From contig CAZDXQ010000016.1 of the NCBI GenBank assembly GCA_964509545.1, positions 509 through 64,508 on the forward strand: a stretch of 64,000 nt of DNA, written 5' to 3'. Positions 14,212-48,795 of this stretch are shown piece after piece. Under the pieces are notes generated by a model. That model saw nothing but the letters and a program-made list of their open reading frames with translations, was not told where the DNA came from and searched no databases. The DNA comes from an uncultured Burkholderiaceae bacterium. GTDB taxonomy: Bacteria > Pseudomonadota > Gammaproteobacteria > Burkholderiales > Burkholderiaceae_F. How positions within the stretch are numbered: the stretch's first letter is position 1; each line of letters begins with the position of its first letter. A program made the translations under genes and the position numbers.

Positions 14212-15891
14212 TCACCGCCTCGTTACCCCCGATCTCTCAAAACGGAGGCTTCCGAGAACCCACGACAGTTCCCGCTCGTCCGCGCCATCCTTGGCGCGGA
14301 CCGGAGCAAGCACCGTGATCGACCTTGCGCCTCGGGGAAACGCGACACGCTCCGAAAAATCGCCCGCGCGCTTAACCTCAAAAGCACCTGCCAGGGCACC
14401 GTCACTGAATACCTGCACGACGAACATGCCGTCAGGATAAGACGTCAGATTCGGCAACCATCCACTCACTACGACTTCGTCCACCTCAGCATTTGGGACA
14501 CGCAGCCCGAGCCGCGGTCGAATCCACGTCTGCATCTCCTCCTTGTAGTAACCACTAGCGCCCGATTCGTCGATCGAATCGTGCGTTACCACGCTTGGCG
14601 AGTTCTCTTTACAGAAGAGCACCTGGAGATTCTTGACCGCGTGCGGCGATAGACGGACTTTCATGTTGTGCACTGGATGCACAGCACCGTCAGTGCACAA
14701 CCATGATTGGGCCTCCTTCATGCTCAACTGTCGGATCGCAGACACGCGCCACTCTGTCCGGAGCGAGTTCACATAGCCAGCTGCGACCGCTAAGCCAAGA
14801 ATTCCGAGAATTACTGGCCTCTGATAGCGATTCAGCAGAAGCACAGTTCCGACTGCACCCGGCACTAGTAGAGGCACGTAACGAGGCGCCTCGGGTTGAA
14901 AGATTCCGGCCGAGACCCGCGAATACGTCACTCCAAGAATCAGGCAGGCGGTTAGCCCGATACAAAGCAATTCGAACATGGTTGCGGGCCACTCCCTGAG
15001 CGCCCTGAACGTGCAGCTAGCGGTAACTATGGCGACCGCGCCTCCTGCAAGCACTGAAAATATCGGCCATCGACCAACATCGAAAAAAGCATGGGCAATC
15101 ATTCGCAGCGCATGCTCTGTGGCCAACGGAAGCACGAGTTCGCCCGTGCCGACACCGCTGCGCGGCGCGAGCAGTTGCGAAATGCCAAATACCGCCAACC
15201 CGACGCATACGCCAAGGATTACTACCGGCGAATACTGCCGCCCCTTCGTCAGCATCATGAGCGCGCCGCCCGTCAGCACAAGGCTGAAAATGCCAGCGCC
15301 ATTGGATAACGTCGCCAGGAGAGCACATGCCATCGCCCAGGCCACGTGCTTTGGCTTTCCTTCGACAGCGAATCGGCGCGCCGCCGCAAATGCAGCCAGG
15401 CTTGCCGCGAGGAACGCAGCGAAGGCGAGCTGCATCGACCAGTACAAGTTCTCCCACTGCCGAGTGGTCAAGACGAGCAACGCAATTGCTCCGCCAGCGA
15501 ACAGTCCTGCCCAGAGGTCGCCGAAGTCGACACGGCCGAGGACCAATGCAAGTGCCACAAGAAGTAGCGGAACCTGCGCGTAGGACATCCACACCCACGG
15601 AAGATCCAGCTTCACCGTCCCTGCGATGAGCAGTTTCAGGAGAATGTAGGGATGGCCATTGTGCGCGGCCAGAATCTCACTGAAGGATGGAAACTCATTT
15701 CGCGCAAGAGCATCGAACAGGGCGTCGAAGGTCAGTTCGTCCTGAAACGGTGTACCGAAGCCGGCTCGCGAAATCAGCAAGAGCAGGATCAGAGACAGTG
15801 CCATTGAGCCCCCGAGCGCCACGATTCGTAGGGTCACGGGCGTCTTCGCAAGAAGTTCAGCGCGCGCGGACATCAACTTTTCCAGGGGCAC
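14212..15891 (-). CDS. polytopic membrane protein, GT-C-like glycosyltransferase candidate with a ~170-aa C-terminal soluble domain
   Basis: 559-aa ORF (GTG 15891; alternative ATG 15873). At least 10 hydrophobic helices. Acidic QDELTFD motif right after the first helix, where GT-C enzymes carry their D/E motif. No family recognised with certainty. Lower-GC sequence. Confidence 0.5.
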   Translation of the reverse strand: MPLEKLMSARAELLAKTPVTLRIVALGGSMALSLILLLLISRAGFGTPFQDELTFDALFDALARNEFPSFSEILAAHNGHPYILLKLLIAGTVKLDLPWVWMSYAQVPLLLVALALVLGRVDFGDLWAGLFAGGAIALLVLTTRQWENLYWSMQLAFAAFLAASLAAFAAARRFAVEGKPKHVAWAMACALLATLSNGAGIFSLVLTGGALMMLTKGRQYSPVVILGVCVGLAVFGISQLLAPRSGVGTGELVLPLATEHALRMIAHAFFDVGRWPIFSVLAGGAVAIVTASCTFRALREWPATMFELLCIGLTACLILGVTYSRVSAGIFQPEAPRYVPLLVPGAVGTVLLLNRYQRPVILGILGLAVAAGYVNSLRTEWRVSAIRQLSMKEAQSWLCTDGAVHPVHNMKVRLSPHAVKNLQVLFCKENSPSVVTHDSIDESGASGYYKEEMQTWIRPRLGLRVPNAEVDEVVVSGWLPNLTSYPDGMFVVQVFSDGALAGAFEVKRAGDFSERVAFPRGARSITVLAPVRAKDGADERELSWVLGSLRFERSGVTRR

Positions 15892-16011
15892 GGCCGATGG
15901 CCGAGCCGCCGCTGCTTGCAGCGCCGATCGGGACTAAGTACAGACATGCAGGCATCCATGCTTTCGGCGCGGCCAGCTTGAGTAAAGAGCGCGCATCGTC
16001 CTTTGCCGAAA

Positions 16012-16027
16012 ACCCGCGATCGCGGGT
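16012..16027 (-). terminator. possible rho-independent terminator after the methyltransferase gene
   Basis: Perfect palindrome ACCCGCGATCGCGGGT, 23 nt past the stop at 16050. On the minus strand it is followed by TTTCGG. The short U-tract makes it only moderate. Confidence 0.4.
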
Positions 16028-16049
16028 CGCCGTTCACCGCCTCGAAATG

Positions 16050-16838
16050 CTAGACGGCCGACTTTTCTGCGATGACGAATTGCGCCCAGGACGTCCAGGA
16101 CCAGTATGCGAATTGCACCGCGTACTCGTCCTCCTTGTTATCGCGAAAGTGTGCAAGCAGCTCCTCTTCCAGGAACGGATTGCGGACGACGCCTTGCTGT
16201 TCAACAGTCAGGCCGAGCTCCCCAAGCCAGCGGACGACGTCTTCACGCGGTGGGATCCGCAGATGCGTCGAATCGTCAAAGAAGGAAGAGATGATCAGGC
16301 GCACTCCCGCTCGCTCGAGCGTCTCACGACTCGGCAAAGATTGCGATAAGGGAGTTGGCCACTCGACATATAGACGCCCTCCATCCTTCAGCCGGCTGGC
16401 GGCCCACTCCACAAAACCCTGCGGTTCATGGATATGTTCGATGAAGTGTGACGACATGATTGCAGCAAACATCATCCCATCGAAGCCGGGCCGAGACTCC
16501 TCCCAATTGCCGAGCTCGAAGCGCGCGTATCGGTCAAAGTGCGCTCCCTTTTCAAGGGACACCGCATAGAGTTCCAGATCACTCCTTTGCGGCGCGGGCC
16601 AGGTCTTGATCATCGCCAGTGATCCATCGCCGGCGCCCATGTCCAACACCTGGGCATGTCTGGGCAGACTCTTGAGAAACAGCGTGCGCGGATGGGACGA
16701 ATGCATGAATTCGACGGCACTCGTCTTGCTCATCACTGGCCGCCGGTCACGGAAGAACCAGTCAGCGACTTCCCTGACAGTGATGCTCGTCACTTCGTTC
16801 ATATCCCAACCCGATCCGTTGTCTTCTTGCTTTCGCAT
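16050..16838 (-). CDS. class I SAM-dependent methyltransferase
   Basis: 262-aa ORF. Motif I VLDMGAGDGSL. Lower-GC sequence. Confidence 0.75.
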   Translation of the reverse strand: MRKQEDNGSGWDMNEVTSITVREVADWFFRDRRPVMSKTSAVEFMHSSHPRTLFLKSLPRHAQVLDMGAGDGSLAMIKTWPAPQRSDLELYAVSLEKGAHFDRYARFELGNWEESRPGFDGMMFAAIMSSHFIEHIHEPQGFVEWAASRLKDGGRLYVEWPTPLSQSLPSRETLERAGVRLIISSFFDDSTHLRIPPREDVVRWLGELGLTVEQQGVVRNPFLEEELLAHFRDNKEDEYAVQFAYWSWTSWAQFVIAEKSAV

Positions 16839-17138
16839 TTCCGGCGCCTACGCTGGCGCAGTCGCCAATCTGATGCTTGACCGTCCACGCATCGAATTCT
16901 GTTGGCAAGTGTCTCTATCCACATTCAGCACAAACATTTCGGCATGCAGCCGTCAGTCACGCGAGCGAACCGTCGAGCTACCGCCCTACCGTACTCACGT
17001 GCGAAACGCCGTCGATGCCAACCTCATCGCGTCAATGCACAAAGCGGCGTTGAGTTGCTCATTGGGAACCCTGTTCTCTTCGGAACCAAGGCCAGTCGAA
17101 AAAATTTGCCGACTGCCACCTGTGCTCGCACCCCGCCG

Positions 17139-18164
17139 TCAAGCTTTCGCCCTCGCTCGACGCTCACCAGTTTCAGCCAAGAAGTGCGCCGCCTGAATAA
17201 GGCGATCCGCGGTGATCGAGCTGTTGTCTGCATGCTTGCTGTAAGAACAGTAGTCAGGCGATGTCGACGTGACCTTGGCGAGTAGGCCGAAGCCGTCAAT
17301 CTCCGCCGCCGATGTCGGCGCAAAGAAAGCTACCGACTTCACACCCTGGGCAATGCCTAGATGCATGGCGAGACTATCGCTTGTGATCAACAAATCGAGG
17401 CGCCCGATCAATGCGGCCATCCGCAAGACGGAATCATTGGTGTTCGGCACCAGAAGCGGCAGTCGCGAACGCGTCGCCGCGATTTCCAAATTGCGGTCGC
17501 GGTCGTTGCCGGCGCCGAAGAGCACTACGGCACATCCTTGGCCAAACGGTCCATGACCGGCCAGCAATGCGTCGATAAGCCTGATCAGTTCCGGCAGGCG
17601 CAACTCCTTCGACGGCCAGCGCCCACCGGCGAAGGGATTGATCCCAATGAGTGACTGATACGGTCGGAACGAAGTGGCCGCCCACTCGTTCAGGTGCGGA
17701 TTGCCGTAGAAGACTGGCTCTACGCTCGCTACCCCAAAGAGATCGCAATGGATCTCGGCGTGCCCTCTCGTGTTGAGCTTCTTGAGTTCATCCGCACGAG
17801 CCTTGCCAAATCGCGACAGCAGGCCCATATCGAACCAGCCCGCAGCATCGTCCGTGTAGGTCGGCCGCCCATTCCGCAACAGCGCGCCGGTTATCTCGCT
17901 CGTCTTTAGCTGTGCGACGTCGTCGAGGACATCCAACTCGTCGTCAAGCGAAAAGATGCGGTCGAACGAAAAAACACGCGCCTCGGCAAACGACGTCCAG
18001 ATGTCATCGATCCACGGATTGAAGCGCAGAAGCGGCACCGATTCCGGTGCTGTCAGCCAAGACAATCGCAGGCCTTCGCCAAATCTCCTGCGCAGCGCTC
18101 TGGCGAAGTAGGATGTCCGCACGACGTCGCCGAGCGCTCCGTGCTTGACGATCAGAATCCTCAC
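17139..18164 (-). CDS. glycosyltransferase family 9 (heptosyltransferase-like)
   Basis: 341 aa. N-terminus MRILIVKHGALGDVVRTSYFARAL is typical of GT9. GTG start overlaps the upstream stop (GTGA). Confidence 0.75.
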   Translation of the reverse strand: MRILIVKHGALGDVVRTSYFARALRRRFGEGLRLSWLTAPESVPLLRFNPWIDDIWTSFAEARVFSFDRIFSLDDELDVLDDVAQLKTSEITGALLRNGRPTYTDDAAGWFDMGLLSRFGKARADELKKLNTRGHAEIHCDLFGVASVEPVFYGNPHLNEWAATSFRPYQSLIGINPFAGGRWPSKELRLPELIRLIDALLAGHGPFGQGCAVVLFGAGNDRDRNLEIAATRSRLPLLVPNTNDSVLRMAALIGRLDLLITSDSLAMHLGIAQGVKSVAFFAPTSAAEIDGFGLLAKVTSTSPDYCSYSKHADNSSITADRLIQAAHFLAETGERRARAKA

Positions 18165-21100
18165 AGCGTCGCCACCTCCGCGCCAGTCTCGATCCTTGTC
18201 GTTGCCGCCGTCCGAACCGCTGGCAGCATGTCCTGCATCAGGCAGCGACGCATTGCCGCCAGAGAGAAATTCTCCTGGGCGAACTCAGTCTGCCGCCGCC
18301 GCTGCGCTCTCCACGCATCGTCGTCGGAAAGCAGCCGCAGCACCGCGGCCGCGAACCTTTCGGCGTCGTCATGCACCGGTATCGTTCCGGACAATTGCTC
18401 CATACCCTGCGCGCCGATAGACGTGGTGACCACCGGCACGCCGAAACGCATCGCCTCGACAACCTTTCCCTTCATTCCTGCGCCGTAGCGAAGCGGCGCG
18501 ACGACGACACGAGCGCGGGCATAGTGCCCGGCCAGTTGCTCATCGGTGACATAGCCTGACACGAGGACATTCTCATCTGCCGCCAGCGCCTTCACGTTCT
18601 CAGTCGGATTGGAACCGACGAGCCAAAGGCGCACAGAAGGATCCTCGGCCCGAATCAGCGGCCATGCGTTCTCGGTGAACCAGACCGCCGCATCTTCGTT
18701 CGGTGGATGGCCAAAGCCGGCGACGAAGAGCAGATCCCGCCGCGACGCAAGATTGGTCTCCTCAACTGGCGCGAAGTCTCGGAAGCCGAACACCGGAATC
18801 GTTCTGACGACCTTATCCGGCCGGAGCCCGCGCACGTAGGACGACTCGCCGTCGGCCGGATAGTAGATCACGTCGGCCAAGGACCAGAGTCGGCGCTCAA
18901 GTTCCTCCATCCGTGCCGCCTCGGCATCGGCTACCTTCGAAATACCGACGACCTTCGCCTGTTCTCGAATCCGAAGATGGTGGATGTCGTGCCCGTAGTA
19001 AAAGATCTTGGCATTGCTGTTGGCCCGAAGAGCATCGATGAAGTTCGCTGCGACGTAAGGCCTGCTCAGCAGCGCGTAATCGATGTATTGGCCGTGCTCT
19101 GCAATCCATGTATCGAATGCGTTCGAGTATTCCGTCCCGTAGAAGACCTCCACGCCCATCGCTTGCAGAGCGCCCGCGTACTGGGGATCACGCCAAAGGT
19201 TCTCCGGCCAAAACTTGACCTGGTAGCCCATTTCGACCAACAGCTCGATCCACTGGTACATCGTTCTCGAGCCTGCGTCGCGATCCGGTTGTGGCACATA
19301 GTGGTCGACCACAAGAACGCATCGCTTGTTGCGCGACCGCTCGCGAGCAAGAAACACGTGCTCGGCATTCGGGAAATGGAAGACCTTCAGCGTCTCCTGC
19401 CAGCGCCGCAGGAACTTCTTCTGGTTCTCGACCTGGTAGGCCTTGATGCCTGTCGTCTCGTCCGTACCGTGACTGACGCCCTCGAAGTGAATCACGACTG
19501 ATCGCGGCTGGTAGACGACCTTCAGGCCGCGCTCGCGGATTCGAAACGCCAGGTCCGTGTCCTCGCAATACGCCGGAACGTATAACTCATCGAAACCGCC
19601 AAGGTCGCGGAGCAGACTCGTGCGGACAAGAATCGATGCCGCCGAGCAATAGTCGGTCTCGCGCGCAAAGTTGAACATCGAACGCTCCGGGTCCTGAAGT
19701 CGGCCGAAGTTCCAGGCCGATGCATCGGCCCAGACGATCCCACCCGCCTCCTGGAGCCGACCATCCGGAAAGACCAGCTTCGATCCCGCCAGTCCGCAGT
19801 CCGGCCACCGCTCGAACGTCCCGACCAGCGCATCGAGCCAGCCCGCCGTGACTTCGGTGTCGTTGTTGAGGAAGTGGACAAACTCACCCGAGGCAAGCTG
19901 AACGGCACGATTGCAGGAACGCAGAAATCCCAGATTTTTCGCGTTGACCTCGTAGCGCAGGCCGGGGACGCCGGCCAGCCGGCCTATCTCGGCGTCTCCC
20001 GATGCGTCCTCCACGACGATGATCTCGACGGCCACGCTCGGCATATTGCGGGCAATCGATCTGAGGCAGGTCAGCGTTACGGCGAGCTTCCCATACGTGG
20101 GAATGATGATGGTCACTCGGGGCCTTTCGGCCACCGGAAACGCCAGTTCAGCCAGAACTCTGTCGACCTCGCCGGCTTCTTCGATCATTTCTGCCAGCGG
20201 CGCCTGCTGGCGATACTGCTGCGCAAGCTTCCACTGCTCGTAGCCGACCAGACCGGAAAACAGCGGCCCGCCGACGCGATAGGCGAGGCGTGCCATTTGC
20301 TGCTTGCGCCGATGGGACAGAGGCAGCTTCAGGTACACCTTCAACGCAATGCGCTGCACCTCGGGCCGCAGCCCGCCCATGACGAGGCGCCACTCGCCTC
20401 GCAGAAGCCGTCCGGCAACACGAAGCGGCCGAGTCAGCCGCCACGACCGCGACCATATGATCCTGTGCAACTCCGCTTCTCGTTCCGCGAGTCGCTGCTG
20501 TGTCTGCAGCAACGATCGCTCGACACGCACCCTCTCGTCAGCCTTCACCGCTGCGTCACGTTGCGCTGCCTCGAGACCTCGTCTTGTTTCCTCGAGGTTC
20601 TTCCTCGTTTCCTCGAGCATCGCGGCCGCGGCCCGGCACTCGGCCTGCGTTGCCTCGATTGTCGCTCGAGCTTGCGACAGTTCCCTCTCCAGGCTCCTTG
20701 CCCAGGTTGCGGCTTCGTCTTGATCGGAGATTGCCTTTGCCAGTTTTTCGCGGGTCTGCATCAACTCGACGTCAAGCGCCTTGGCCCACCCAACCGTCGT
20801 TACATGTCGCTTGACCGGATCATCGACCTCGGAGAGCGCGAACGAAGGCTGAAGTTCCGGAAGCAACGAGTCTTGCGCTGCGCACACCGCGACGAAGTAG
20901 ACGGCGCCACCGAGAAGCGCCGTTCGCGGCGCCCACGAATCGCCGCGATCCGCAAACGCGCTGTACTGCGGCGCATGCTGGCCATCCGGCAAGAGCGCCG
21001 AACCCGTCACCATGCGCTGCGTCACATAACGGATTGCCGGGAAACTTCTGCGCAGCAGGCGATCGAGTTCGTCGAAGTCGAGCTCCCGAACATGAAATTC

Positions 21101-21556
21101 GTTGGCCGCTTCGCGCATCTGTCCGTAAACGGGACGGTTTGGCGACGAGAGCACAAGCAAGCCTTCGGGAGCGAGTACGCGACGAATCTCCGCCAGCATC
21201 ACGTCCTGCTCCCGCAGGTGCTCGATCGTTTCGAACGACACGACCCGCTCGACACTGCCGCTCGCCAGCGGGATCGCGCATGCGCTTCCCCACGCAAAGC
21301 GCAGATTCTGCTGTCGCGAGTAGCGCTCCGTCGCGTGCGCTACGGCCGCGGCGTCGATGTCGACCCCGACAACATGGCGCGCCTCCTGCGCAAGCATGAA
21401 TGACCCATACCCCTCGCCACAGGCAATGTCGAGCACGGACTTGCCATGGCAAAGCGGTGTCGCCCAGGCATAGCGGTGCAGGTGCTCAAGACGGATTTCT
21501 CCTCCGAGCTCGGGCACGTAGCGCTCGCCGGTGAACTGCATGCCGGCGCTACCCAT
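18161..21556 (-). CDS. multidomain O-polysaccharide assembly protein: SAM methyltransferase + coiled coil + GT2 + GT4/GT1
   Basis: 1131 aa. MT domain is about aa 1-230 (20867-21556, VLDIACGEGYGSFMLA). Heptad-rich Ala/Glu/Arg/Gln segment is about aa 262-366 (20459-20773). GT2 is about aa 480-720 (19397-20119; IIIPTYGK..., VEDASGD, NNDTEV). GT4-like domain is about aa 745-1105 (18242-19324; VAPLRYGAGMKGKVVEAMRFGVPVV). Confidence 0.8.
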   Translation of the reverse strand: MGSAGMQFTGERYVPELGGEIRLEHLHRYAWATPLCHGKSVLDIACGEGYGSFMLAQEARHVVGVDIDAAAVAHATERYSRQQNLRFAWGSACAIPLASGSVERVVSFETIEHLREQDVMLAEIRRVLAPEGLLVLSSPNRPVYGQMREAANEFHVRELDFDELDRLLRRSFPAIRYVTQRMVTGSALLPDGQHAPQYSAFADRGDSWAPRTALLGGAVYFVAVCAAQDSLLPELQPSFALSEVDDPVKRHVTTVGWAKALDVELMQTREKLAKAISDQDEAATWARSLERELSQARATIEATQAECRAAAAMLEETRKNLEETRRGLEAAQRDAAVKADERVRVERSLLQTQQRLAEREAELHRIIWSRSWRLTRPLRVAGRLLRGEWRLVMGGLRPEVQRIALKVYLKLPLSHRRKQQMARLAYRVGGPLFSGLVGYEQWKLAQQYRQQAPLAEMIEEAGEVDRVLAELAFPVAERPRVTIIIPTYGKLAVTLTCLRSIARNMPSVAVEIIVVEDASGDAEIGRLAGVPGLRYEVNAKNLGFLRSCNRAVQLASGEFVHFLNNDTEVTAGWLDALVGTFERWPDCGLAGSKLVFPDGRLQEAGGIVWADASAWNFGRLQDPERSMFNFARETDYCSAASILVRTSLLRDLGGFDELYVPAYCEDTDLAFRIRERGLKVVYQPRSVVIHFEGVSHGTDETTGIKAYQVENQKKFLRRWQETLKVFHFPNAEHVFLARERSRNKRCVLVVDHYVPQPDRDAGSRTMYQWIELLVEMGYQVKFWPENLWRDPQYAGALQAMGVEVFYGTEYSNAFDTWIAEHGQYIDYALLSRPYVAANFIDALRANSNAKIFYYGHDIHHLRIREQAKVVGISKVADAEAARMEELERRLWSLADVIYYPADGESSYVRGLRPDKVVRTIPVFGFRDFAPVEETNLASRRDLLFVAGFGHPPNEDAAVWFTENAWPLIRAEDPSVRLWLVGSNPTENVKALAADENVLVSGYVTDEQLAGHYARARVVVAPLRYGAGMKGKVVEAMRFGVPVVTTSIGAQGMEQLSGTIPVHDDAERFAAAVLRLLSDDDAWRAQRRRQTEFAQENFSLAAMRRCLMQDMLPAVRTAATTRIETGAEVATL

Positions 21557-22934
21557 TGGCGAGTCCCACGCTGATGTCCAGCATCGGGATACCTATTAGG
21601 CCATGCCGCAGCGTCGCGTCGTTCGAGCGGAATGACAACGCATCATGAATCCAATGCTGCTGAGTATGGTCGTTCTGGGAACCACTCGCTACGGCAACAT
21701 CGACCGTGTATTCGCCTGAAGGCATCAACGGCATGCGGAAGCGGAAACGCGCGACCATACGCTCCCCGGCAGAGGCGCGCGGCGGGCTGCCCAGATACAT
21801 GAGATACGAGTTGTCTCCGAAAAGGCGCTGGCCCAGCCTGTCCTTGACGTAAAAGCCAAAGATGACGTCCTGCACATCCGCGAAAGCGCGCGCCGAGATC
21901 TCGAGTACAACGACCTCCCCTTCGAGCACATGCGCCGACGGGTCACCCGTATCGGCCCGAAGGCGCACATCGTCTATTTCGATCTTTCGCTCGCCAAATG
22001 CTGCGGCGACACGCTCCGGATCGAACTCGAAGACGGGCATCGCCGTGCGGCCTGGAAATCCGACAATGGCTTGCGACCGTACGTCGACCTCGGTCGCGAG
22101 TGAGGGGCACGCCCTGCCACCACGCGAGTTGGTCGCACTCACGGTGACGCGCGCACCCGCGGCGGCCCGGTCTTGTGCGTGTTGCTCCGCCAGATAGCTC
22201 TCCACGACCTGTTTCGACGGTCCGTCCATCATCACCCGCCCCTGCTCGAGCCAGATTGCACGAGAGCAGAGATTGATCACCGCGGACAGGTCGTGACTGA
22301 CGAAAAGCAGCGTGCCGCGGCTCTGGAAATCACGAAGATAACGAGCGCATTTCTGCGAGAAGCGCACATCCCCAACCGACAGCGCCTCATCGATCACCAG
22401 GACGTCCGCGTCGACATGGGCGGCGACAGCAAAGGCCAGGCGGACGTACATGCCGCTCGAATACGTCTTTACCGGCTGTTTGATGAAGTCACCGAGATCC
22501 GAGAACGCCACGATTGAATCAAAGCGCCGCGCCAGCTCCTGCTCCGCGATGCCGTAGAGCAGCCCGCTCAGGCGGATGTTTTCCTCGCCCGTGAACTCGG
22601 GGTTGAAGCCCGCGCCGAGCTCGAGCAACGCTGCAACCCTGCCGTGCCGCGAAACGCTGCCCGTCGTGGGCGTCAAGGTGCCACAGATCAGCTGCAGGAG
22701 CGTTGACTTGCCCGAGCCGTTCCGGCCGATGATCCCGAGTGTTTCCCCTTCCGCGACATCAAAGGAGATGGGATGCAGGGCCCAGAACTCTCTCGCATAC
22801 TGCCCCGGCGCGAATCCACAGAAGCGGCGAAGCCTCCCAAGGACCATTTTGCGCAGCCGATCGACCGGCCGGGCGTAGACGTCGTAACGCTTTGAGAGAT
22901 CGTCGGCGCGAATCGCGACCGGCCTAGAGGACAT
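21549..22934 (-). CDS. wzt: O-antigen/polysaccharide ABC transporter ATP-binding protein with C-terminal extension (Wzt-type)
   Basis: Start ATG 22934. Walker A GRNGSGKST, signature YSSGMYVRLAFA, Walker B VLVIDEAL. About 200 extra C-terminal residues (21552-22172), beta-rich, as in Wzt carbohydrate-binding domains. Confidence 0.88.
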   Translation of the reverse strand: MSSRPVAIRADDLSKRYDVYARPVDRLRKMVLGRLRRFCGFAPGQYAREFWALHPISFDVAEGETLGIIGRNGSGKSTLLQLICGTLTPTTGSVSRHGRVAALLELGAGFNPEFTGEENIRLSGLLYGIAEQELARRFDSIVAFSDLGDFIKQPVKTYSSGMYVRLAFAVAAHVDADVLVIDEALSVGDVRFSQKCARYLRDFQSRGTLLFVSHDLSAVINLCSRAIWLEQGRVMMDGPSKQVVESYLAEQHAQDRAAAGARVTVSATNSRGGRACPSLATEVDVRSQAIVGFPGRTAMPVFEFDPERVAAAFGERKIEIDDVRLRADTGDPSAHVLEGEVVVLEISARAFADVQDVIFGFYVKDRLGQRLFGDNSYLMYLGSPPRASAGERMVARFRFRMPLMPSGEYTVDVAVASGSQNDHTQQHWIHDALSFRSNDATLRHGLIGIPMLDISVGLANG

Positions 22935-23745
22935 CGGCAAACCCTGGTCGCGTGCGCTGGAACCACCAGAAGGCAAACCAGGCAAACACGGACGCACCAA
23001 CTGTGTAAAGACCCAACCCGATCCAGTCGGGCCAGCGGCCCCAAATCAATGCTTCGCGCGACTGCTCGATGATGAACGTCAGCGGGTTCAACAGCAGCAG
23101 CTTGCGGTATGGCTCCGCGAGCATCGTTGCCGGATAGAAAACGGGCGCCAGAAACATCAGCGCCATCGTCAGGATGCCGACAGCCTGCTGCAGATCGCGA
23201 ATGAAGACGCCCAGCGACGCCAGCAGCCAGACAACGCCGACGACCGCGGGAATGAACGACAGCAGGACGAAGGGAAAGGCGACGACAGTAACGGGCAGCG
23301 GCCCGCGAACCAGCAGCAGCGCGAGCAACAAGGCCAGCGTCGAGACAAGAGCATGAAAGAGCGCCGTTCCGACGACAACCCACGACAGGGTCTCTAGCGG
23401 AAACACGACTTTCTTCACGTAATTGGGATTGCTGACAACGAGCTGAGGCGCCCGATTGGCACATTCGGCAAAGAAGCCGTGGATGATCATGCCCACGAAC
23501 AGAATGACTGCAAACTCGGCCTGCCCTTCGTTCGGAAGACCCCAGCGCGCCTTGAACACGTGGCCAAAGACGAATGTATAGACCAGCAAGAGCAGCAATG
23601 GGTTGAAGAAAGACCAGAAGACGCCCAGCATCGCTCCGCGGTACCGGCCAATCACTTCGCGCCTGGTCATTTGCCGCACCAGGGCGAAGTGACGAGCCAG
23701 CGCCGCCCAAGGCGAAAGGATCCAGAGCCGGTATTCCGCGCTCAC
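22924..23745 (-). CDS. wzm: O-antigen/polysaccharide ABC transporter permease (ABC-2 type)
   Basis: GTG 23745 (GTGA overlap with the rfbD stop). VRQMTRREVIGRYRGAMLGVFWSFFNPLLLLLVY is the typical Wzm N-terminus. Six hydrophobic helices. Confidence 0.85.
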   Translation of the reverse strand: MSAEYRLWILSPWAALARHFALVRQMTRREVIGRYRGAMLGVFWSFFNPLLLLLVYTFVFGHVFKARWGLPNEGQAEFAVILFVGMIIHGFFAECANRAPQLVVSNPNYVKKVVFPLETLSWVVVGTALFHALVSTLALLLALLLVRGPLPVTVVAFPFVLLSFIPAVVGVVWLLASLGVFIRDLQQAVGILTMALMFLAPVFYPATMLAEPYRKLLLLNPLTFIIEQSREALIWGRWPDWIGLGLYTVGASVFAWFAFWWFQRTRPGFADVL

Positions 23746-24638
23746 GGCTGCCAGTCTTCGAGGCACAGGTTCAGCGCCTGCTCCCAATGCGGCATGCGGA
23801 TTCCCCAGATTTCTCCGACCCGCGAGTTGTCGAGCAATGAGTACATCGGCCGCTGCGCGGGTGTCGAGTACTCCGTGGTCGCGATCGGCACAAGCCGCTT
23901 CAGGCGGCGCTGGGAGTCCGCAACCCCGTCGAAAACCCTCTTCGCGAACTCGTACCAAGTCGTTGCGCCGGACGCCGTCAGATGGAAAATGCCGCCTCGC
24001 TCCTCGAAGATTCGGCGCACGGAGCCGGCGTCACGCCCGGCACGCGCCAGGATCTGAGCCGTCGCTTCGGCAACGGAACGTGCCCAGGTCGGAGCGCCAA
24101 GCTGATCGTTCACTACCTTGATTTCCTCGCGCTCACGCGCCAGGCGCAGCATGGTGCGGACGAAATTCTGGCCGCGGTTGGCGTAAACCCAACTTGTTCT
24201 GAGAATGATCGCCGGCGCGCCGCTGCCGAGGATCGCCGTTTCGCCGGCCGCCTTGCTGCGCCCGTAGGCCGACAACGGGCCAGTGCGTTCGGATTCGCGC
24301 CAGGGCTTCGTCGCCCGTCCGTCGAAAACGTAATCTGTCGAATAGTGCAGCAAGGCCGCGCCGTTCGACCGTGCCCACCGAGCCATGGCCGCCGGCGCCT
24401 CAGCGTTGATCCGGAAAGCGAGGTCTTCTTGCGACTCAGCCAGGTCCACCGCAGTAAATGCTGCAGAATTAACGATGACCTGCGGCCGAACCGCATCGAG
24501 GAGCGAAGTCACGTTCTCCGCTTCACTCAGATCACAGTCCGGCTGGTCCAAGGCCACAACTTCACCGAGCGTTTGCAGGGTCCGCGCCAGTTCGTAACCC
24601 ACCTGACCGTTCCGTCCTGTCAGAAGAAGACGAATCAA
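23742..24638 (-). CDS. rfbD: dTDP-4-dehydrorhamnose reductase
   Basis: 298 aa. LLTGRNGQVGYEL, YSTDYVFDG, YGRSKAAGE motifs. TTG start overlapping the rfbC stop. Confidence 0.9.
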   Translation of the reverse strand: MIRLLLTGRNGQVGYELARTLQTLGEVVALDQPDCDLSEAENVTSLLDAVRPQVIVNSAAFTAVDLAESQEDLAFRINAEAPAAMARWARSNGAALLHYSTDYVFDGRATKPWRESERTGPLSAYGRSKAAGETAILGSGAPAIILRTSWVYANRGQNFVRTMLRLAREREEIKVVNDQLGAPTWARSVAEATAQILARAGRDAGSVRRIFEERGGIFHLTASGATTWYEFAKRVFDGVADSQRRLKRLVPIATTEYSTPAQRPMYSLLDNSRVGEIWGIRMPHWEQALNLCLEDWQP

Positions 24639-25183
24639 GGAAACACCTCGGCCCGATCCAGGTACGGGGCGGAGAGGTCCTTGCCCGCCAGCAACGGCCC
24701 ATCGTCGATCCGGCCCCAGTCGACAGCGAGCTGCGGGTCGTTCCAGCGCACACTCCGGTCGAATTCTTCCATCCAGTAGTCGGTAGTCTTGTACAGAAAA
24801 TCTGCGAATGCGCTACGCACCAGGAATGCGTGCCCGAACCCAGGCGGAACCCACAGCTGAAGCTTGTTCTCCGCGCTCAGTTCGACGCCCACCCACCTAC
24901 CGAAATTCGGCGACGAGCGTCGCAGATCGACCGCCACGTCGAACACCGCACCGCTGACCACCCGCACCAGTTTCCCCTGCGGCCTGACCAGCTGATAGTG
25001 GATGCCGCGCAGCACGTTCTTCGCCGAGCGCGAGTGATTGTCCTGCACGAACGTCACGTTGAGCCCGGTCGCCTCGCGAAAGACCCTCGCGTTCCAGCTT
25101 TCCATGAAGAAGCCGCGCTCGTCGCCGAAAACCTTCGGCTCGAGGATCAGCACTTCTGGTAATGCGGTGGCAGTGACCTTCAT
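24635..25183 (-). CDS. rfbC: dTDP-4-dehydrorhamnose 3,5-epimerase
   Basis: ORF 24635..25192; ATG 25183 preferred (MKVTATALPEVLILEPKVFGDERGFF...RGIHYQ). Confidence 0.92.
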   Translation of the reverse strand: MKVTATALPEVLILEPKVFGDERGFFMESWNARVFREATGLNVTFVQDNHSRSAKNVLRGIHYQLVRPQGKLVRVVSGAVFDVAVDLRRSSPNFGRWVGVELSAENKLQLWVPPGFGHAFLVRSAFADFLYKTTDYWMEEFDRSVRWNDPQLAVDWGRIDDGPLLAGKDLSAPYLDRAEVFP

Positions 25184-29664: not shown

Positions 29665-30090
29665 GTGGTGCCGGCGGACGTCAACGTCCTCGTCTACGCC
29701 CACCGCGAAGACACCGAGCATCATTCGCCCTGCCGGCGCTGGCTGGAGGCAACGATCAACGGCGATGAGCGCTACGGGGTGTGGGAACTCGTCCTGAGCG
29801 GCTTGGTTCGCGTTGCGACGCACCCGAAGGTCTTCGCCTCGCCCAGTTCGATGAGGCAGGCGCTCGAGTTCACCGAGCAGGTGCCAGAGCAGCCAAACGC
29901 CATGCTGATCGAACCAGGCGAGCGCCATTGGTCGATCTTCCGCCGCCTGTGCGTCTAAGCCAAGGCAAAGGGAAACCTGATCCCCGACGCGTATTTCGCT
30001 GCTTTGGCCATCGAGGGCGGCTGCGCGTGGATCACCACTGACCGCGACTACAGCCGCTTTCCGGGCTTGCGCTGGAAGAGCCCGCTCCAG
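29665..30090 (+). pseudogene. vapC-type PIN-domain toxin with an in-frame TAA at codon 98
   Basis: MVPADVNVLVYAHRED...WELVLSGLVRVATHP...HWSIFRRLCV then TAA (29956-29958). The same frame continues [44 protein letters not shown], which is the C-terminal half of this VapC family. Confidence 0.75.
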
Positions 30091-42024: not shown

Positions 42025-42185
42025 TCCGAGCGCGACGGCGTGCTCACTGCGCGCCGGCGTTGAGGTGAGTCAACGCGTCCGCCGGCGCCGACAGGCACGC
42101 GCCGCCGATGTTGATTTCGCTCAGCCAGCGTCCGGATCTGCCGTGCATCCTGCGCTCGTTTTGGTCTCGCTTCGAGGAGCCAAAG

Positions 42186-42761
42186 ATGAATATGGAACGT
42201 CGCCGCGTGCTCAAGGCAGGCGCCGTCGGCGCCGCGCTTGGCCTGATCGCCCCGATCGGCCGGGCGCAATCGCCGTCGCAGATCGACGCCAAGGCCATGT
42301 TCGAGCGGCTGGGCAAGGAAGGCAAGGGTTTCGACATGCTGCGCTCGCTCGGCCCACGAGAGCCGGTCTATGTCGTCTTCGATCCGCAGTGCCGGTTCTG
42401 CGTCAGGCTGTGCGAGGCGGCCAGGCCCATCGCACAGCGGATCCGCTTCGTCTGGGTGCCGGTGGCACTGGTCAACGGCAAGAGCGAACCTCAGGCAGCG
42501 GCCATCCTGTCGGCGGCCGACCCTGCGGCGGCGATGCAGGCACACGAGCGCAGCTTCGCCTCCGGAGGCTCGGCCGCCGGCGCGATGAAGATCGACGCTT
42601 CGACGCGCGGCGCGGTGCAGGCGAACTCGCGGATCTTTCGCCGCGCCGGCGGCGCGACCGTGCCGACCACGGTCTTCCGCCACCGTGGCACGGGCCAGTA
42701 TTCGGTGATCGCCGGCGCCCTCGACAGTGGCGCGCTGAAGCAGGCGTTGGGGATTGCCTGA
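42186..42761 (+). CDS. periplasmic thioredoxin-fold protein, DsbG/DsbC-like
   Basis: ATG 42186 (MNMERRRVLKAGAVGAALGLIAPIGRAQS, Tat/Sec-like signal). CxxC = VVFDPQCRFC. C-terminal TVPTTVF cis-Pro loop. Confidence 0.6.
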   Translation: MNMERRRVLKAGAVGAALGLIAPIGRAQSPSQIDAKAMFERLGKEGKGFDMLRSLGPREPVYVVFDPQCRFCVRLCEAARPIAQRIRFVWVPVALVNGKSEPQAAAILSAADPAAAMQAHERSFASGGSAAGAMKIDASTRGAVQANSRIFRRAGGATVPTTVFRHRGTGQYSVIAGALDSGALKQALGIA

Positions 42762-44668: not shown

Positions 44669-44956
44669 TTATGCAATCACGCCCATGAGGTCCTCTTCAC
44701 GCATGACGAGCAGTTCCTCGCCCTCGACCTTCACCGTCTGGCCGGCGTACTTGCCGAACAGCACACGGTCGCCCACCTTGACGTCGAGCGCGATCAGCTT
44801 GCCGTTCTCGTCGCGCTTGCCGGGGCCGACTGCAACGATCTCGCCCTGATCCGGCTTCTCCGCCGCCGTGTCGGGAATCACGATGCCCGACGCCGTCTTG
44901 CGCTCCTGATCCAGACGTTTGACGATCACACGATCGTGCAACGGACGAATTTTCAT
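44669..44956 (-). CDS. groS: co-chaperonin GroES
   Basis: 95 aa. [29 protein letters not shown]. Confidence 0.98.
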
Positions 44957-45077: not shown

Positions 45078-45104
45078 CTAGCACTCCCCATTGGCGAGTG
45101 CTAA
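45078..45104 (-). promoter_or_regulatory. CIRCE operator (HrcA binding site) upstream of groES
   Basis: CTAGCACTC-N9-GAGTGCTAA on the plus strand equals TTAGCACTC-GCCAATGGG-GAGTGCTAG in the groES orientation. Consensus is TTAGCACTC-N9-GAGTGCTAA (17/18 arm positions). Lies 122 nt upstream of the groES ATG. Confidence 0.85.
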
Positions 45105-45132: not shown

Positions 45133-45531
45133 GCGGGCCAGCGGATTGAAGTTATCCCCAAGCCTGATTGTTCCCCGCAACGGCAACTCAACAGCGGCAA
45201 CTCGACAGACAGGCCAACGAGCGCATCGCCGAACGAAAAAGGGCTCGCGCGATCGATGCCGCCGACGGTGCTCCCGCCAGCGCCCGGGGTCGTTCGCGCC
45301 GACATCGATATCCAGGTCTATCCCTCGGCCTCGCGGCAACCGGTTCTCGGGTGCAGCGCCCGACCGCCGCGCCCGGATGCTTGATCGCCCGGTGCTCATC
45401 GTGAGGGACTAATCCGCGCAGGGGGCTATCGGCGGCGGCGCGACTACGGCACTCTTCGAGCGATCGGCTGGAAGAGCCGCAAGTCGCGCAGCGCCACAGC
45501 GCGCCGCCGGCACAGTGAGAGACGCAACGTC

Positions 45532-46197
45532 GTGGGCCTGTTTGACAGCAAGAGAGACGCCAAGCTCACCAAGACCCGGCGCACCGGATTTATCCATTCG
45601 GTGCTCAGCTTTACGCGGTTGGAGATCCCCACCCTCGAGGTCTATGAAACAGCGGTGGCCTTCGGCCCGGATACCGACCCGATCACGGCTCACCGCGAAC
45701 TCGCAGACGTCTTCGGCCAGAAGGCCGGTGAAGGCGAATTCCTGTTCCGAGCCGACAGCACGATCGCCGGCCGCTACTGGGTGCAGTCGATCGTTCCGTG
45801 GACACGCTGGCCGGAAACCGCGGTCAGCGCGCTGGAGCCGAAGCGGGTCGTGATCCAGCTCGCCGAAGGGCTGATGTACCGCTTCACGCTGCAGGTGTGC
45901 GCCGGACAGGTGAAGATGGTCGACGGCGAGAAGAAGATCGAGCCCTACCGCAATCCGCAGGACGTCGAGGCGTGGCTTCGCGCAAGCGCGGCGGGTTACG
46001 GCTTCACGCCGCTGATGCTCGACGTGTCGATGCAGACGCTGCGCTTTGCCCATCGCGGCCAGAAGATCAAGATCGAATACGCGCAGATCGAAGGCGCGCT
46101 CGAGGTCGCCGAACCCGAGCAGTTCAAGCGCCGGATCCGGCAGGGCTTTGGCCACCACCGCCGCGCCGGCCTCGGACTGATCCAGCTGACCGCCTGA
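45532..46197 (+). CDS. solitary CasE (Cas6e/Cse3)-like RAMP protein
   Basis: 221-aa ORF (GTG start, uncertain) with strong third-position G+C. Colinear with CasE as I remember it. AHRELADVF aligns with the catalytic-His region. EFLFRADS...YWVQSIVPW aligns with (D/R)FLFRxE...VLVQS..P. YRFTLQV aligns with FRLRANP. AWLRASAAGYGF aligns with AWLxRK...GF. KIEYAQIEGALEVAEPEQFKRRIRQGFGHHRRAGLGLIQL aligns with vxFeGxLxVxDPxxfxxxxxxGiGxxKAFGCGLLSL. Confidence 0.6.
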   Translation: MGLFDSKRDAKLTKTRRTGFIHSVLSFTRLEIPTLEVYETAVAFGPDTDPITAHRELADVFGQKAGEGEFLFRADSTIAGRYWVQSIVPWTRWPETAVSALEPKRVVIQLAEGLMYRFTLQVCAGQVKMVDGEKKIEPYRNPQDVEAWLRASAAGYGFTPLMLDVSMQTLRFAHRGQKIKIEYAQIEGALEVAEPEQFKRRIRQGFGHHRRAGLGLIQLTA

Positions 46198-46363
46198 GCG
46201 CGCCGGTCCCGGCGCAAACCCTTCAAGGGACAAAGGGTAGGTTTCCCAGCGAGCCCCTGCTGCCTAAGGCCGGTTGGCGCCCGCGCCGCGACCGCCGATG
46301 CGTGGTCGGGCGGGCTTGTGCGGCGCCGAGTCGCCCCGACATACGGCCGCAGGAGGTTACCCA

Positions 46364-47224
46364 ATGCTGGATACCACGCAGCAAAACTTCGCCCGCGACG
46401 TCGTCGAGGCTTCGCGCGACGCGCCGGTGCTGGTCGATTTCTGGGCCCCTTGGTGCGGGCCATGCCGGATGCTATCGCCGCTGCTGGCGGCCATCGAAAC
46501 GGAATTCAGCGGACGACTGAAGGTCGTCAAGCTGAACGTCGATGAAAACCCGGAAATTGCCACCCGCTTCGCTGTGCGCAGCATTCCGTACGTCGTTGCC
46601 TTCGTCGACGGTCAGCCTGTCGATTCGTTCGTCGGCGTGCTGCCGGCAGCAGACCTACGCAAGTTTGTCGGCCGCCTTCTGCCCGATCCGGCCGAAATCG
46701 AGCGGCGCAAGGCGCAGAACCTGCTCGATCAGGGCGACCGTTCCGGTGCGGCCCGCGCGCTGCGCGCCGCCCTCGCACTCGATCCCGACCGCGATTCCAC
46801 CCGCCTCGATCTCGCTGCGCTGCTGCTGCAGCACTCGACCGATGCCGGACGGCTCGACGAGGCTGCCTCTGCGCTGGCGGGCGTATCGGCGCCGGGCAAG
46901 CTCGAACCGCGATGGCTCGCCCTCGACACGCAGTTGCACAGCCAGCGCCGGGCCGCCGAACTGCCGGGCGCAGACGCGCTGAAGGCCCGTATCGAGGCCG
47001 ATCCGGCCGACCTGCAGGCGAGGCTCGACCTGGCCAACGTGCACCTGGCGCGGCGCGAGTTCGAGCCGGCGTTGGAGCAGTTGCTCGCGATCGTGCAACG
47101 CGACCGCGGCTTCGGTGACGACATCGGCCGGCGCACCATGCTTTCGGTGTTCGATCTAGCGGCCGATCAGCCGCAACTGGTTTCTTCCTTCCGGCGCCGC
47201 CTGTCCGCGCTGCTGAATCGCTGA
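46364..47224 (+). CDS. thioredoxin-domain + TPR co-chaperone (YbbN/CnoX-like)
   Basis: ATG 46364 preceded by AGGAGG. VLVDFWAPWCGPCRMLSP (WCGPC). The C-terminal half is TPR-like. Confidence 0.85.
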   Translation: MLDTTQQNFARDVVEASRDAPVLVDFWAPWCGPCRMLSPLLAAIETEFSGRLKVVKLNVDENPEIATRFAVRSIPYVVAFVDGQPVDSFVGVLPAADLRKFVGRLLPDPAEIERRKAQNLLDQGDRSGAARALRAALALDPDRDSTRLDLAALLLQHSTDAGRLDEAASALAGVSAPGKLEPRWLALDTQLHSQRRAAELPGADALKARIEADPADLQARLDLANVHLARREFEPALEQLLAIVQRDRGFGDDIGRRTMLSVFDLAADQPQLVSSFRRRLSALLNR

Positions 47225-47313: not shown

Positions 47314-48795
47314 TTGCCCATGCCTAACGCGAGTTCACTGGCCGGCGACGCGTCGGCGCGTCAGTGCTGGTCACTGTCGCGCTGGCTCGGCGCGTCGCTG
47401 CTGCTGGCGGCGGCCGCGCTTGACGCCCCGTCGATGGCCCAGGATCCGGCGAATCTTCAGCCGGTGCCCGAGGAAGTGACGGCAGCGCTGCGCAGCGCGC
47501 AGATTCCCGCTTCGGCGTCGGCCGTCGTCGTGCTGCCGCTTGCGCCAGGGGGCGTGACGATCGCAGTCAACGATGCCCGGCCGATGAATCCGGCGTCGAC
47601 GATGAAGCTGGTCACGACCTACGTGGCGCTGAACCTCCTCGGCCCCGCCTACACCTGGCGTACAGAGGCCTTCGTCACGGGCGCCTTGCGCCGCGACGTG
47701 CTCGAAGGTGATCTGGTGATCCGCGGCAGCGGCGACCCGAAACTCGTGATCGAAAACCTGTGGCTGATGATCCATCGCATCCGCAGCTACGGCATTCGCG
47801 AGATCCGCGGCGACGTCGTGCTCGATCGCTCGGCCTTCGCGCCGCTGGCGCACGATCCCGGCGAGTTCGATGGCGAACGGCTGCGCCCCTATAACGCCGG
47901 CCCCGACGCGCTGCTGCTGAACTTCAAGGCGGTCACGCTCGGCTTCGTGCCCGATCCGGAAACTCGCACCGCCCGCGTCGTGGCCACGCCCCTGCTCGCG
48001 GGCATGAAGCTGCCGCCCAATATCCGCGCCACGGACGGCCCCTGCGGCGACTGGCGCGCCCGGCTGCAGGCCGACTTCGCCGATCCGATGGCGCCGGTGT
48101 TCCGCGGTGCCTATCCGCTCGCCTGCGGCGAGCGCAACTGGCCGCTTTCAGTTCTCGATCACAACAGCTATTTCGCCGCAGCGTTCGCCGGGCTGTGGCG
48201 CAACGCGGGCGGAACATGGCGCGGCAAGCTGCGCGGCGGCAGCGTGCCCTACGACGCGCGGCGCATCGCGCTGCACGAATCGCCGCCGCTTGCCGAAGTG
48301 ATCCGTGACGTCAACAAGTTCAGCAACAACGTCATGGCGCGGCAGATCTTCCTGACGCTGGGCGGCGAGGCCGGCCGCCAGCCAGCCAGCGCGGCGCGGG
48401 CCGAGGCAGCGATCCGCGGTTGGCTGGACAGCCGCGGCCTGGCCATGCCGGAACTGGTGCTGGAAAACGGCGCCGGGCTGTCGCGCATCGAACGCATCTC
48501 GGCCGGCAGCCTGGCGCGCCTGCTGCAGCAGGCCTTCGCCAGTCCGCTGATGCCCGAACTGATGGCCTCGCTGCCGCTGGTTGGAGTCGACGGCACCATG
48601 CGCAAACGCAACGGCGCCGCCAACGCTGCGCACATCAAGACCGGGCTGCTCGCCGACGTGCGGGCCGTCGCCGGCTACGTGCACGCCGCCAGCGGCCGAC
48701 GCTACGCGGTGGTGGCGATCATCAACCACGCCAACGCCCGCGACGGCCAGGCCGCGCACGATGCGCTGCTGCAGTGGGTGTACCTGAACGGCTGA
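47314..48795 (+). CDS. dacB: D-alanyl-D-alanine carboxypeptidase/endopeptidase (PBP4)
   Basis: 493 aa. Signal peptide, NPASTMKLVT (SxxK), FSNN (SxN), HIKTG (KTG). Confidence 0.87.
   Translation: MPMPNASSLAGDASARQCWSLSRWLGASLLLAAAALDAPSMAQDPANLQPVPEEVTAALRSAQIPASASAVVVLPLAPGGVTIAVNDARPMNPASTMKLVTTYVALNLLGPAYTWRTEAFVTGALRRDVLEGDLVIRGSGDPKLVIENLWLMIHRIRSYGIREIRGDVVLDRSAFAPLAHDPGEFDGERLRPYNAGPDALLLNFKAVTLGFVPDPETRTARVVATPLLAGMKLPPNIRATDGPCGDWRARLQADFADPMAPVFRGAYPLACGERNWPLSVLDHNSYFAAAFAGLWRNAGGTWRGKLRGGSVPYDARRIALHESPPLAEVIRDVNKFSNNVMARQIFLTLGGEAGRQPASAARAEAAIRGWLDSRGLAMPELVLENGAGLSRIERISAGSLARLLQQAFASPLMPELMASLPLVGVDGTMRKRNGAANAAHIKTGLLADVRAVAGYVHAASGRRYAVVAIINHANARDGQAAHDALLQWVYLNG

Follow-up and report, generated by a model that had tools for sequence, protein, structure and literature searches.

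The 64,000-nucleotide stretch of contig CAZDXQ010000016.1 analysed here (assembly GCA_964509545.1, from an uncultured Burkholderiaceae bacterium; hereafter the window) carries on its plus strand, at positions 45532-46197, an open reading frame (ORF) of 221 codons plus stop, with a GTG start, whose product resembles Cas6e (CasE/Cse3) of type I-E CRISPR-Cas systems in translation, profile matches, AlphaFold2 model and Foldseek comparison. GC contents of 0.65, 0.44 and 0.85 at its first, second and third codon positions are typical of coding DNA in a window of 66.7% GC, so the frame is regarded as coding, as an earlier note on this DNA, made from the sequence alone, had proposed on the strength of third-position GC. 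The same note placed the ORF between groES and a thioredoxin-tetratricopeptide repeat (Trx-TPR) gene, and both neighbours are confirmed: groES lies upstream on the minus strand (44669-44956), while the plus-strand gene at 46364-47224, the usual downstream neighbour in related loci, combines a thioredoxin domain with a WCGPC site and TPR_19/TPR_20 domains according to Pfam, an architecture of the CnoX/YbbN type. Next on the plus strand stands a Peptidase_S13 (DacB/PBP4-like) gene (47314-48795), recognized by a tblastn match to the Pfam-annotated S13 genes of syntenic loci. The non-coding DNA upstream of the ORF, put at about 400 nt in the earlier note, is in fact a 575-nt spacer, of which some 180 nt are accounted for by the promoter, CIRCE operator and leader of groESL. 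Public annotation names genes of this family either "type I-E CRISPR-associated protein Cas6/Cse3/CasE" or "hypothetical protein", and the former, automatic name overstates what is known of them. The best-supported reading of the evidence set out below is that the casE-like family is structurally Cas6e yet functionally detached from CRISPR, and it is apparently undescribed in the literature searched.

Judged by profiles, predicted fold and motifs together, the ORF product is a true Cas6e/CasE homologue, with a likeness far beyond chance. It matches the Pfam family PF08798 at 75.1 bits (cut-off 25; E 1.2e-20), TIGR01907 (casE_Cse3) at 55.5 bits (cut-off 45.2) and the Cas6e models of PADLOC at E 1.3e-23, with weak matches to the PADLOC type IV Cas6 models (E 7.7e-5 and 0.005). 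An hhalign comparison of a profile of 105 family members with a profile of 36 canonical Cas6e sequences gave a probability of 99.85% and E 1.6e-30 over 189 aligned columns. When the single casE-like sequence was searched against the PDB, the match was marginal (Cse3 at E 0.002), indicating that the protein has diverged strongly. AlphaFold2 produced the same model in two runs with different family alignments, with a mean predicted local distance difference test (pLDDT) of 89 and a predicted template modelling score of 0.80; pLDDT values below 50 were confined to the first 17-26 residues. The model displays a beta-alpha-beta layout in each of two halves, that is, the double ferredoxin-like (RRM) fold of RAMP proteins, and a Foldseek search of the PDB returned the Thermus thermophilus Cse3-RNA complexes first (E 6e-14, template modelling score 0.66-0.76, probability 1.0), followed by Escherichia coli CasE, alone and in Cascade, with generic Cas6 proteins much weaker. 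Two of the checks proposed in the earlier note, a search with CasE/Cse3 profiles and a structure prediction with comparison to published structures, thus bear out its description of the protein as CasE-like.

The elements around the Cas6 active site are retained. In a joint alignment with canonical Cas6e proteins, the only invariant columns are His54, L71, W148, G188, G205, G207, G213 and G215, and His54 (codon at 45691-45693, plus strand) aligns with the catalytic His of E. coli CasE (H20) and of T. thermophilus Cse3 (H26), the reference sequences of both having been checked as identical to the PDB chains. The Cse3 residue numbers used here, H26 and Y23, refer to the sequence verified against the PDB. 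The profile alignment of hhalign likewise pairs His54 with Cse3 H26, and the residue is unchanged in 105 of 105 family sequences. In CasE, H20 is essential for cleavage (PMC5965381). Toward the C-terminus, residues 205-215 (46144-46176, plus strand) read G-F-G-H-H-R-R-A-G-L-G, which fits the consensus GhGxxxxxGhG of the RAMP Gly-rich loop (PMC5965381) and holds basic residues inside it, as expected of a loop with at least one Lys or Arg; G205, G207, R210, G213, L214 and G215 are invariant across the 105 sequences. The alignment with Cse3 and CasE also bears out the matches to the FLFR block, to the AWL helix and to the C-terminal EGxLEV…GxGxxxxxGxG segment. The segment-by-segment layout that the earlier note had drawn up is accordingly sound throughout: the His in AHRELADVF falls at the catalytic position, the EFLFRADS segment is the FLFR block, the AWLxR helix and the C-terminal glycine-rich loop lie where they were placed, and the RANP sequence is indeed not conserved, being replaced by VCAG.

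Several features set the family apart from canonical Cas6e, to which the protein is 21-27% identical in the joint alignment. About 33 extra residues precede the canonical core, comprising a variable basic tail (residues 1-18; 45532-45585, plus strand), which differs in length and sequence among homologues and has pLDDT below 50, and a family-specific motif, G-F-[IV]-H-S-V-L-S-F-T-R-L-E-I-P (residues 19-33; 45586-45630, plus strand). Across the family alignments this motif takes the form GF[IV]HSVLSFT[RK]LE[IL]P, with T28 and P33 invariant and L30 nearly so, and the variation of the DNA alignment at third codon positions shows that it is translated. Neither AlphaFold2 run models most of it confidently: pLDDT stays below 50 for residues 19-26 and averages about 50 over the block of residues 21-30 in both, and in the run with the broader alignment values below 50 extend over residues 1-26. 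The two methods also disagree about its place in the fold, hhalign laying SFTRLEIP on canonical strand beta1 whereas AlphaFold2 forms beta1 from residues 34-43. The second difference concerns the basic beta-hairpin that binds the RNA groove, where R-A-N-P of the R-x-R-A-N-P sequence is replaced by V-C-A-G (residues 122-125; 45895-45906, plus strand) within YRFTLxVCAG according to the Cse3/CasE alignment; in the 105 sequences G125 never varies and C123 hardly does. The hallmark is a soft one, as some canonical Cas6e proteins also deviate at its N-P. Over the 28 aligned residues of the hairpin, the casE-like protein has 5 basic and 3 acidic residues versus 9 basic ones in Cse3, and the calculated isoelectric point is 10.9 for residues 1-33 and 6.9 for the core, compared with 10.3 for Cse3 and 9.6 for CasE.

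These departures bear directly on the chief rival reading, in which the Cas6e fold persists without RNA cleavage, as a regulator that only binds RNA or as a protein-binding scaffold, for instance one whose N-terminal motif docks onto the TPR domain of the Trx-TPR neighbour or onto a chaperone. A near-neutral core that has lost the basic hairpin and RANP would suit such a protein, as would a conserved N-terminal motif modelled with low confidence, which is what might be expected of a segment that folds on a partner, and a gene for a TPR protein adjoins the casE-like gene in most loci. However, His54 and the entire Gly-rich loop, including its Arg, have stayed invariant among relatives spanning 44-99% identity, which is hard to understand without an RNA-directed active site, and the Trx-TPR gene is absent beside the casE-like gene in at least four loci. 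A non-cleaving role is on balance unlikely.

The casE-like protein belongs to what its sequence scores indicate is a small, discrete clade apart from canonical Cas6e. A word-indexed protein search returned 256 relatives, the best 120 of which are 54-99% identical to the query and mostly 221-233 residues long, and a second search from a divergent representative added a further branch at 44-53% identity. An exhaustive hidden Markov model (HMM) search of 1.84 billion representative proteins yielded 11 representatives below E 1e-30; in the same library, full-length family members scored 246-278 bits and canonical Cas6e-sized proteins at most 55, leaving a gap of about 190 bits. Candidate evolutionary intermediates between the two groups did not withstand inspection: the mid-scoring proteins P0134, P0142 and P0147 are frameshifted fragments of family members, and P0144 is a eukaryote-like FN3-repeat protein with a spurious match to the YRFTLxVCAG strand. 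Long repetitive proteins (P0132, P0137, P0138, P0144 and P0150) reached E 1e-9 to 1e-27 through 6-24 short stretches, and in view of the spurious match found in P0144, matches of this kind are to be watched when the family is mined with HMMs. A scan of one genome per species recovered 26 loci, 24 of them in genomes titled Burkholderiales, Burkholderiaceae or Betaproteobacteria, the other two coming from a bin labelled Caballeronia and a "Gemmatimonadota" bin, and the family also occurs on many metagenome contigs. The "Gemmatimonadota" contig (JBLMYK010000197.1; loci L004/L022) encodes GroEL and GroES 93% and 97% identical to those of the window and shows full Burkholderiales synteny; it is thus probably a misbinned contig rather than evidence of a second carrier phylum.

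Family loci share a single housekeeping region, with the order acyltransferase, pyrC, pyrB, pyrR, ruvX, DUF179, in some cases photolyase and a major facilitator superfamily (MFS) gene, groEL-groES on the opposite strand, and the casE-like gene, followed usually by the Trx-TPR gene, Peptidase_S13 (dacB-like), in some cases redoxin and dsbD, an aminotransferase, rubredoxin and pilG/H/I/J-chpA. The conservation beside groES that the earlier note had put forward as a check therefore holds for the region, which recurs in 26 species-level genomes, but not for groES as a constant neighbour. Unrelated genes stand upstream instead of groESL in five or more of the loci retrieved, and in the divergent branch at least one gene separates groESL from the casE-like gene, so that the link to the heat-shock operon suggested by the same note, real as an adjacency in the window and in many loci, is lost in several. 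Of the first 34 loci retrieved (duplicates included), 33 have the Trx-TPR gene next after the casE-like one, mostly across spacers of 53-100 nt; it is missing beside the casE-like gene in L028, L036, L039 and L040. In L039 and L040, where no Trx-TPR gene intervenes, the casE-like stop codon and the start codon of the S13 (dacB/PBP4-like) gene overlap by 4 nt (10819-10822, GTGA, and 10654-10657, TTGA, respectively), an overlap that suggests co-transcription and translational coupling of casE-like and dacB in the divergent branch. Strict functional coupling to groESL or to Trx-TPR was also considered and is ruled out, as each neighbour is absent in some loci.

The casE-like gene is under purifying selection. 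The ratio of nonsynonymous to synonymous substitution rates (dN/dS), estimated by the Nei-Gojobori method, is 0.11-0.29 against the six closest loci, to which the estimate is limited since farther pairs are saturated at synonymous sites. Across loci, the casE-like protein is 54-86% identical, compared with 55-80% for Trx-TPR, 58-83% for S13, 53-82% for MFS and 86-96% for GroEL; it therefore diverges at about the rate of Trx-TPR, S13 and MFS and evolves as an ordinary functional chromosomal gene. These results weigh heavily on one of three alternatives raised in the earlier note, that the ORF is stranded from a lost I-E system, which is taken here to mean a functionless gene in decay or a fragment duplicated recently. 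Its being the sole cas-family gene found in the window would agree with such an origin. Against it, the frame is intact at conserved length in well over 100 distinct family sequences and syntenic in the 26 species-level genomes, selection is evident in the dN/dS values, many positions are invariant, some of them specific to the family and others belonging to the catalytic motifs, and an identity of at most 27% to canonical Cas6e speaks against a recent copy; the 44-99% range of identities, moreover, rules out that the homologues are assembly duplicates of a single organism. A remnant or fragment is thus scarcely tenable, and the two outcomes that might have spoken against a functional gene, a lack of conservation or of purifying selection and a recent duplication, are both excluded.

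Searches for CRISPR and cas elements around the gene were uniformly negative within their scope. No repeat array was detected in the 64-kb window by TRF, a direct-repeat search, a k-mer spacing scan or a search for I-E-repeat-like patterns, nor did the window contain a solitary I-E-like repeat hairpin at up to three mismatches. The k-mer spacing scan covered the window and 41 related loci (517 kb); its one match is a 30-residue protein repeat in an FG-GAP gene, and it detected nothing like a CRISPR array. Among 20 other ORFs of the window none matched a PADLOC model; Pfam, applied to nine more, showed a lipopolysaccharide/O-antigen cluster, and the remaining genes were read from syntenic, Pfam-annotated loci. 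Within 10 kb on either side of nine annotated family loci, no cas Pfam family was present, and nowhere in the loci examined does the arrangement of a I-E operon (cse1-cse2-cas7-cas5-cas6e, cas3, cas1-cas2 and an array) appear. The statement in the earlier note that the 64 kb hold neither another cas gene nor a repeat array is thereby sustained. A mobile-element origin of the gene was considered as well and is ruled out, as phage records contain no relative of the family and the only plasmid match is an annotated canonical cas6e with 26% identity. The gene also differs from type IV-A Csf5, given the weak profile match and a chromosomal housekeeping context in place of a plasmid setting with csf1-3/dinG.

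A further alternative is a trans-acting paralogue that processes crRNA for a CRISPR-Cas system in another part of the genome, in the manner of stand-alone Cas6 proteins at many type III loci. The protein retains every catalytic hallmark of Cas6e, the negative searches cover the window and related loci, and Cas6 acting in trans is a known arrangement (PMC12669027). Several observations count against it all the same. The fixed housekeeping locus in 26 species-level genomes contrasts with the patchy distribution and mobility of CRISPR-Cas, the loci examined have neither an array nor a cas gene in the vicinity, and a gap of some 190 bits, with no intermediates, separates the family from canonical Cas6e-sized proteins. 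In addition, canonical I-E operons carry their own cas6e. We consider a trans-acting crRNA-processing role improbable.

The DNA preceding the casE-like gene contains conserved elements of its own. A non-coding block (GAGGGACTAATCCGCGC…GGGCTATCGG; 45403-45432, plus strand) lies about 100-130 nt upstream of the start codon, is kept in the eight closest loci and is possibly a promoter or leader. Boxes resembling GGACTA[AG] and GCTATC recur upstream of the gene in more distant loci, and the set GGACTA[AG], GGGAT-N20-G[CT]TAT and GCTATC can be followed from 45403-45432 of the window through L016-L034 and L039-L041. None of the sigma-70, sigma-32 and sigma-54 consensus sequences fits these boxes, and one may speculate that GGGAT-N20-G[CT]TAT with GCTATC marks an alternative-sigma promoter or an operator. 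A small upstream ORF ending at GGAC-TAA was rejected as coding, being absent in relatives and not conserved as a protein; the stop-like triplet after GGAC varies between TAA and TAG. RNAalifold, applied to the upstream region of the eight closest loci, gave a weak fold in which compensatory pairs were few and the covariation term was unfavourable, and it was not accepted as a conserved structure; Rfam returned nothing at gathering scores in the window, with only chance-level matches around the casE-like gene.

Elsewhere in the same spacer, a sigma-70-like groESL promoter (TTGAAG-17-TATCAT; 45132-45104, minus strand) directly adjoins a CIRCE inverted repeat, the operator of HrcA (TAGCACTC-N9-GAGTGCTA; 45079-45103), and both are kept in relatives that retain groESL upstream. 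An insertion of about 165 nt (approximately 45134-45300) is unique to the window and absent from all close relatives; it carries a 14-nt tandem duplication (45178-45205), and the small ORFs overlapping it are not conserved. On the other side of the casE-like gene, a sigma-32 (RpoH)-type motif, CTTGnn-N13-15-CCCCGAyaT, precedes the Trx-TPR start (46313-46344 in the window). It is present in 22 of 27 distinct casE-like–Trx-TPR spacers, against a background of 0.086 matches per kb, and ends 18-22 nt before the start codon in 20 of these spacers and about 35 nt before it in two. A separate heat-shock promoter within this spacer therefore probably serves the Trx-TPR gene, and the spacer is explained by this promoter. 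Whereas E. coli CnoX has SxxC at its active site, the Trx-TPR protein (46364-47224) has the canonical WCGPC and is therefore probably redox-active in the manner of Caulobacter CnoX. The latter belongs to the RpoH regulon (PMC6282202), in agreement with the sigma-32-type motif.

Other features of the window are recorded here as separate observations. A stretch of low GC content at about 12900-24800 (0.585-0.63, versus about 0.68 in most other 2-kb bins) is a gene cluster of the lipopolysaccharide/O-antigen type by Pfam, with an epimerase, methyltransferases, a heptosyltransferase-like GT9 protein, a Wzt-type ABC ATPase and RmlD, as well as a 1131-residue methyltransferase-GT2-GT1 fusion; a 559-residue ORF in this cluster (14215-15891, minus strand) has no Pfam match. 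Between the MFS gene and groEL, a 217-residue ORF (42108-42761, plus strand) combines a signal-peptide-like N-terminus with a C-R-F-C motif and has no PADLOC match. In locus L001, the gap between MFS and groEL is only about 200 nt, and the ORF is probably a window-specific extra gene for a thiol-disulfide (Dsb-like) protein. A short ORF at 29665-29958 (plus strand; VVPADVNVLVYAHRED…) looks like a PIN/VapC-type toxin and likewise has no PADLOC match.

Considered as a whole, the conservation, fold and active-site elements make it rather probable that the casE-like gene encodes a domesticated Cas6e-fold protein that binds a specific RNA stem-loop in a host RNA and probably cuts it by the His-dependent mechanism of Cas6. 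In the evolutionary course envisaged, a type I-E cas6e gene would have become fixed once between groESL and dacB in the ancestor of a Burkholderiales sub-lineage and would thereafter have been inherited vertically, detached from Cascade, from the adaptation genes and from any CRISPR array. The protein keeps the RAMP fold with its two RRM domains, the catalytic-position His and the Gly-rich loop that clamps RNA; it has gained the conserved N-terminal extension, has lost R-A-N-P and the basic character of the hairpin, and is under purifying selection. It would still bind one specific RNA stem-loop as Cas6 does, with probable metal-independent, His-dependent cleavage beside it, the substrate being a host transcript instead of a CRISPR repeat, and the altered hairpin and new N-terminus would then point to an altered specificity or a new partner. 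Candidate targets would include the mRNA of its own operon (casE-like, in some loci a cnoX-like gene, and dacB) and the CIRCE hairpin in the groESL leader, neither of which gains support here. The more specific proposal, that the protein is a lineage-wide housekeeping RNA-processing factor, a His-dependent endoribonuclease specific for sequence and structure whose substrate is a host transcript (which might be the mRNA of its own operon or the leader of a chaperone gene), appears to us nearly as likely as its opposite, with the scale tipped slightly against it.

Several observations weigh against a domesticated RNA-cutting protein of this kind. Its core is near-neutral (isoelectric point 6.9) and its hairpin is stripped of most basic residues, so that RNA binding could be weakened or lost, and the position of Cse3 Y23, three residues before the His, is I, V or L in the family, a Tyr that is also missing in several canonical Cas6e proteins. 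No RNA target or conserved hairpin was found with Rfam, RNAalifold or the I-E repeat pattern search, and the neighbouring genes give no coherent functional hint, the adjacency to groESL and to Trx-TPR being dispensable alike. The CRISPR-free result, furthermore, covers the window and related loci, and a distant I-E or other CRISPR locus may be present in carrier genomes. Of the three possibilities raised in the earlier note, recruitment of a CasE-fold protein to a non-CRISPR role is nevertheless the best supported, by reasoning from conservation and context, although the RNA target that such a role calls for was not found.

To our knowledge, RAMP proteins (Cas5, Cas6 and Cas7) are generally regarded as confined to CRISPR-Cas, and where Cas components are known to have been recruited to other roles, the cases are mostly whole effector modules, as in type IV systems and CRISPR-associated transposons, or non-RAMP proteins such as Cas1 and Cas4. 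The full-text literature searched yielded neither a solo Cas6e family nor a lineage-wide solo RAMP or Cas6e, and no solo Cas6e lineage appears in the RAMP classification of 2011, the exaptation essay of 2022, the classification update of 2025 or a study devoted to isolated cas genes. If domestication is borne out, no RAMP/Cas6e protein would have been shown before this one to serve a whole lineage as a fully domesticated housekeeping factor in RNA processing, and an enzyme once part of CRISPR would be linked to the control of genes for proteostasis or the cell envelope. It would also offer a clean natural case of the passage from CRISPR nuclease to host RNA-processing or regulatory protein, long kept under purifying selection at a housekeeping locus with the hallmarks intact and the hairpin remodelled, and hence a testable entry point into the fate of Cas proteins after the loss of their systems. 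The family could bring to light an additional level of post-transcriptional control in an uncultured Burkholderiales lineage, and it could be a source of small modules that bind or cut RNA at hairpins with a specificity not available so far.

Comparison with known systems places the family most closely beside Cas6e/CasE/Cse3 (PF08798, TIGR01907; PDB 1WJ9, 2Y8W, 4DZD), with which it shares profile membership, the RAMP fold, the His of helix 1, the FLFR, AWL and EGxLEV blocks and the C-terminal GhGxxxxxGhG loop. Unlike these proteins, it is encoded in loci where, as far as examined, no cse1-cse2-cas7-cas5, cas1/2/3 or array lies nearby, is at most 27% identical to them, carries the N-terminal segment of about 33 residues and a VCAG that is invariant or almost so in place of RANP, has a far less basic hairpin and a near-neutral core, and is inherited vertically in a housekeeping region. 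Stand-alone Cas6 proteins that act in trans in type III and some type I systems are similar in being encoded outside an effector operon, whereas they lie within or close to CRISPR-cas loci and act on CRISPR repeats; no CRISPR component was found in the window or in the related loci examined. The Csf5/Cas6e-like proteins of type IV-A provide a parallel in which a Cas6e-related RAMP serves a derived system without adaptation genes; however, they are encoded with csf1-3/dinG, mostly on plasmids, and no plasmid relative was found for the casE-like clade. Finally, the solo-Cas4 proteins (PMC5704561) resemble the present family as members of a Cas family conserved away from CRISPR-cas loci, although they differ from the casE-like protein in both fold and chemistry.

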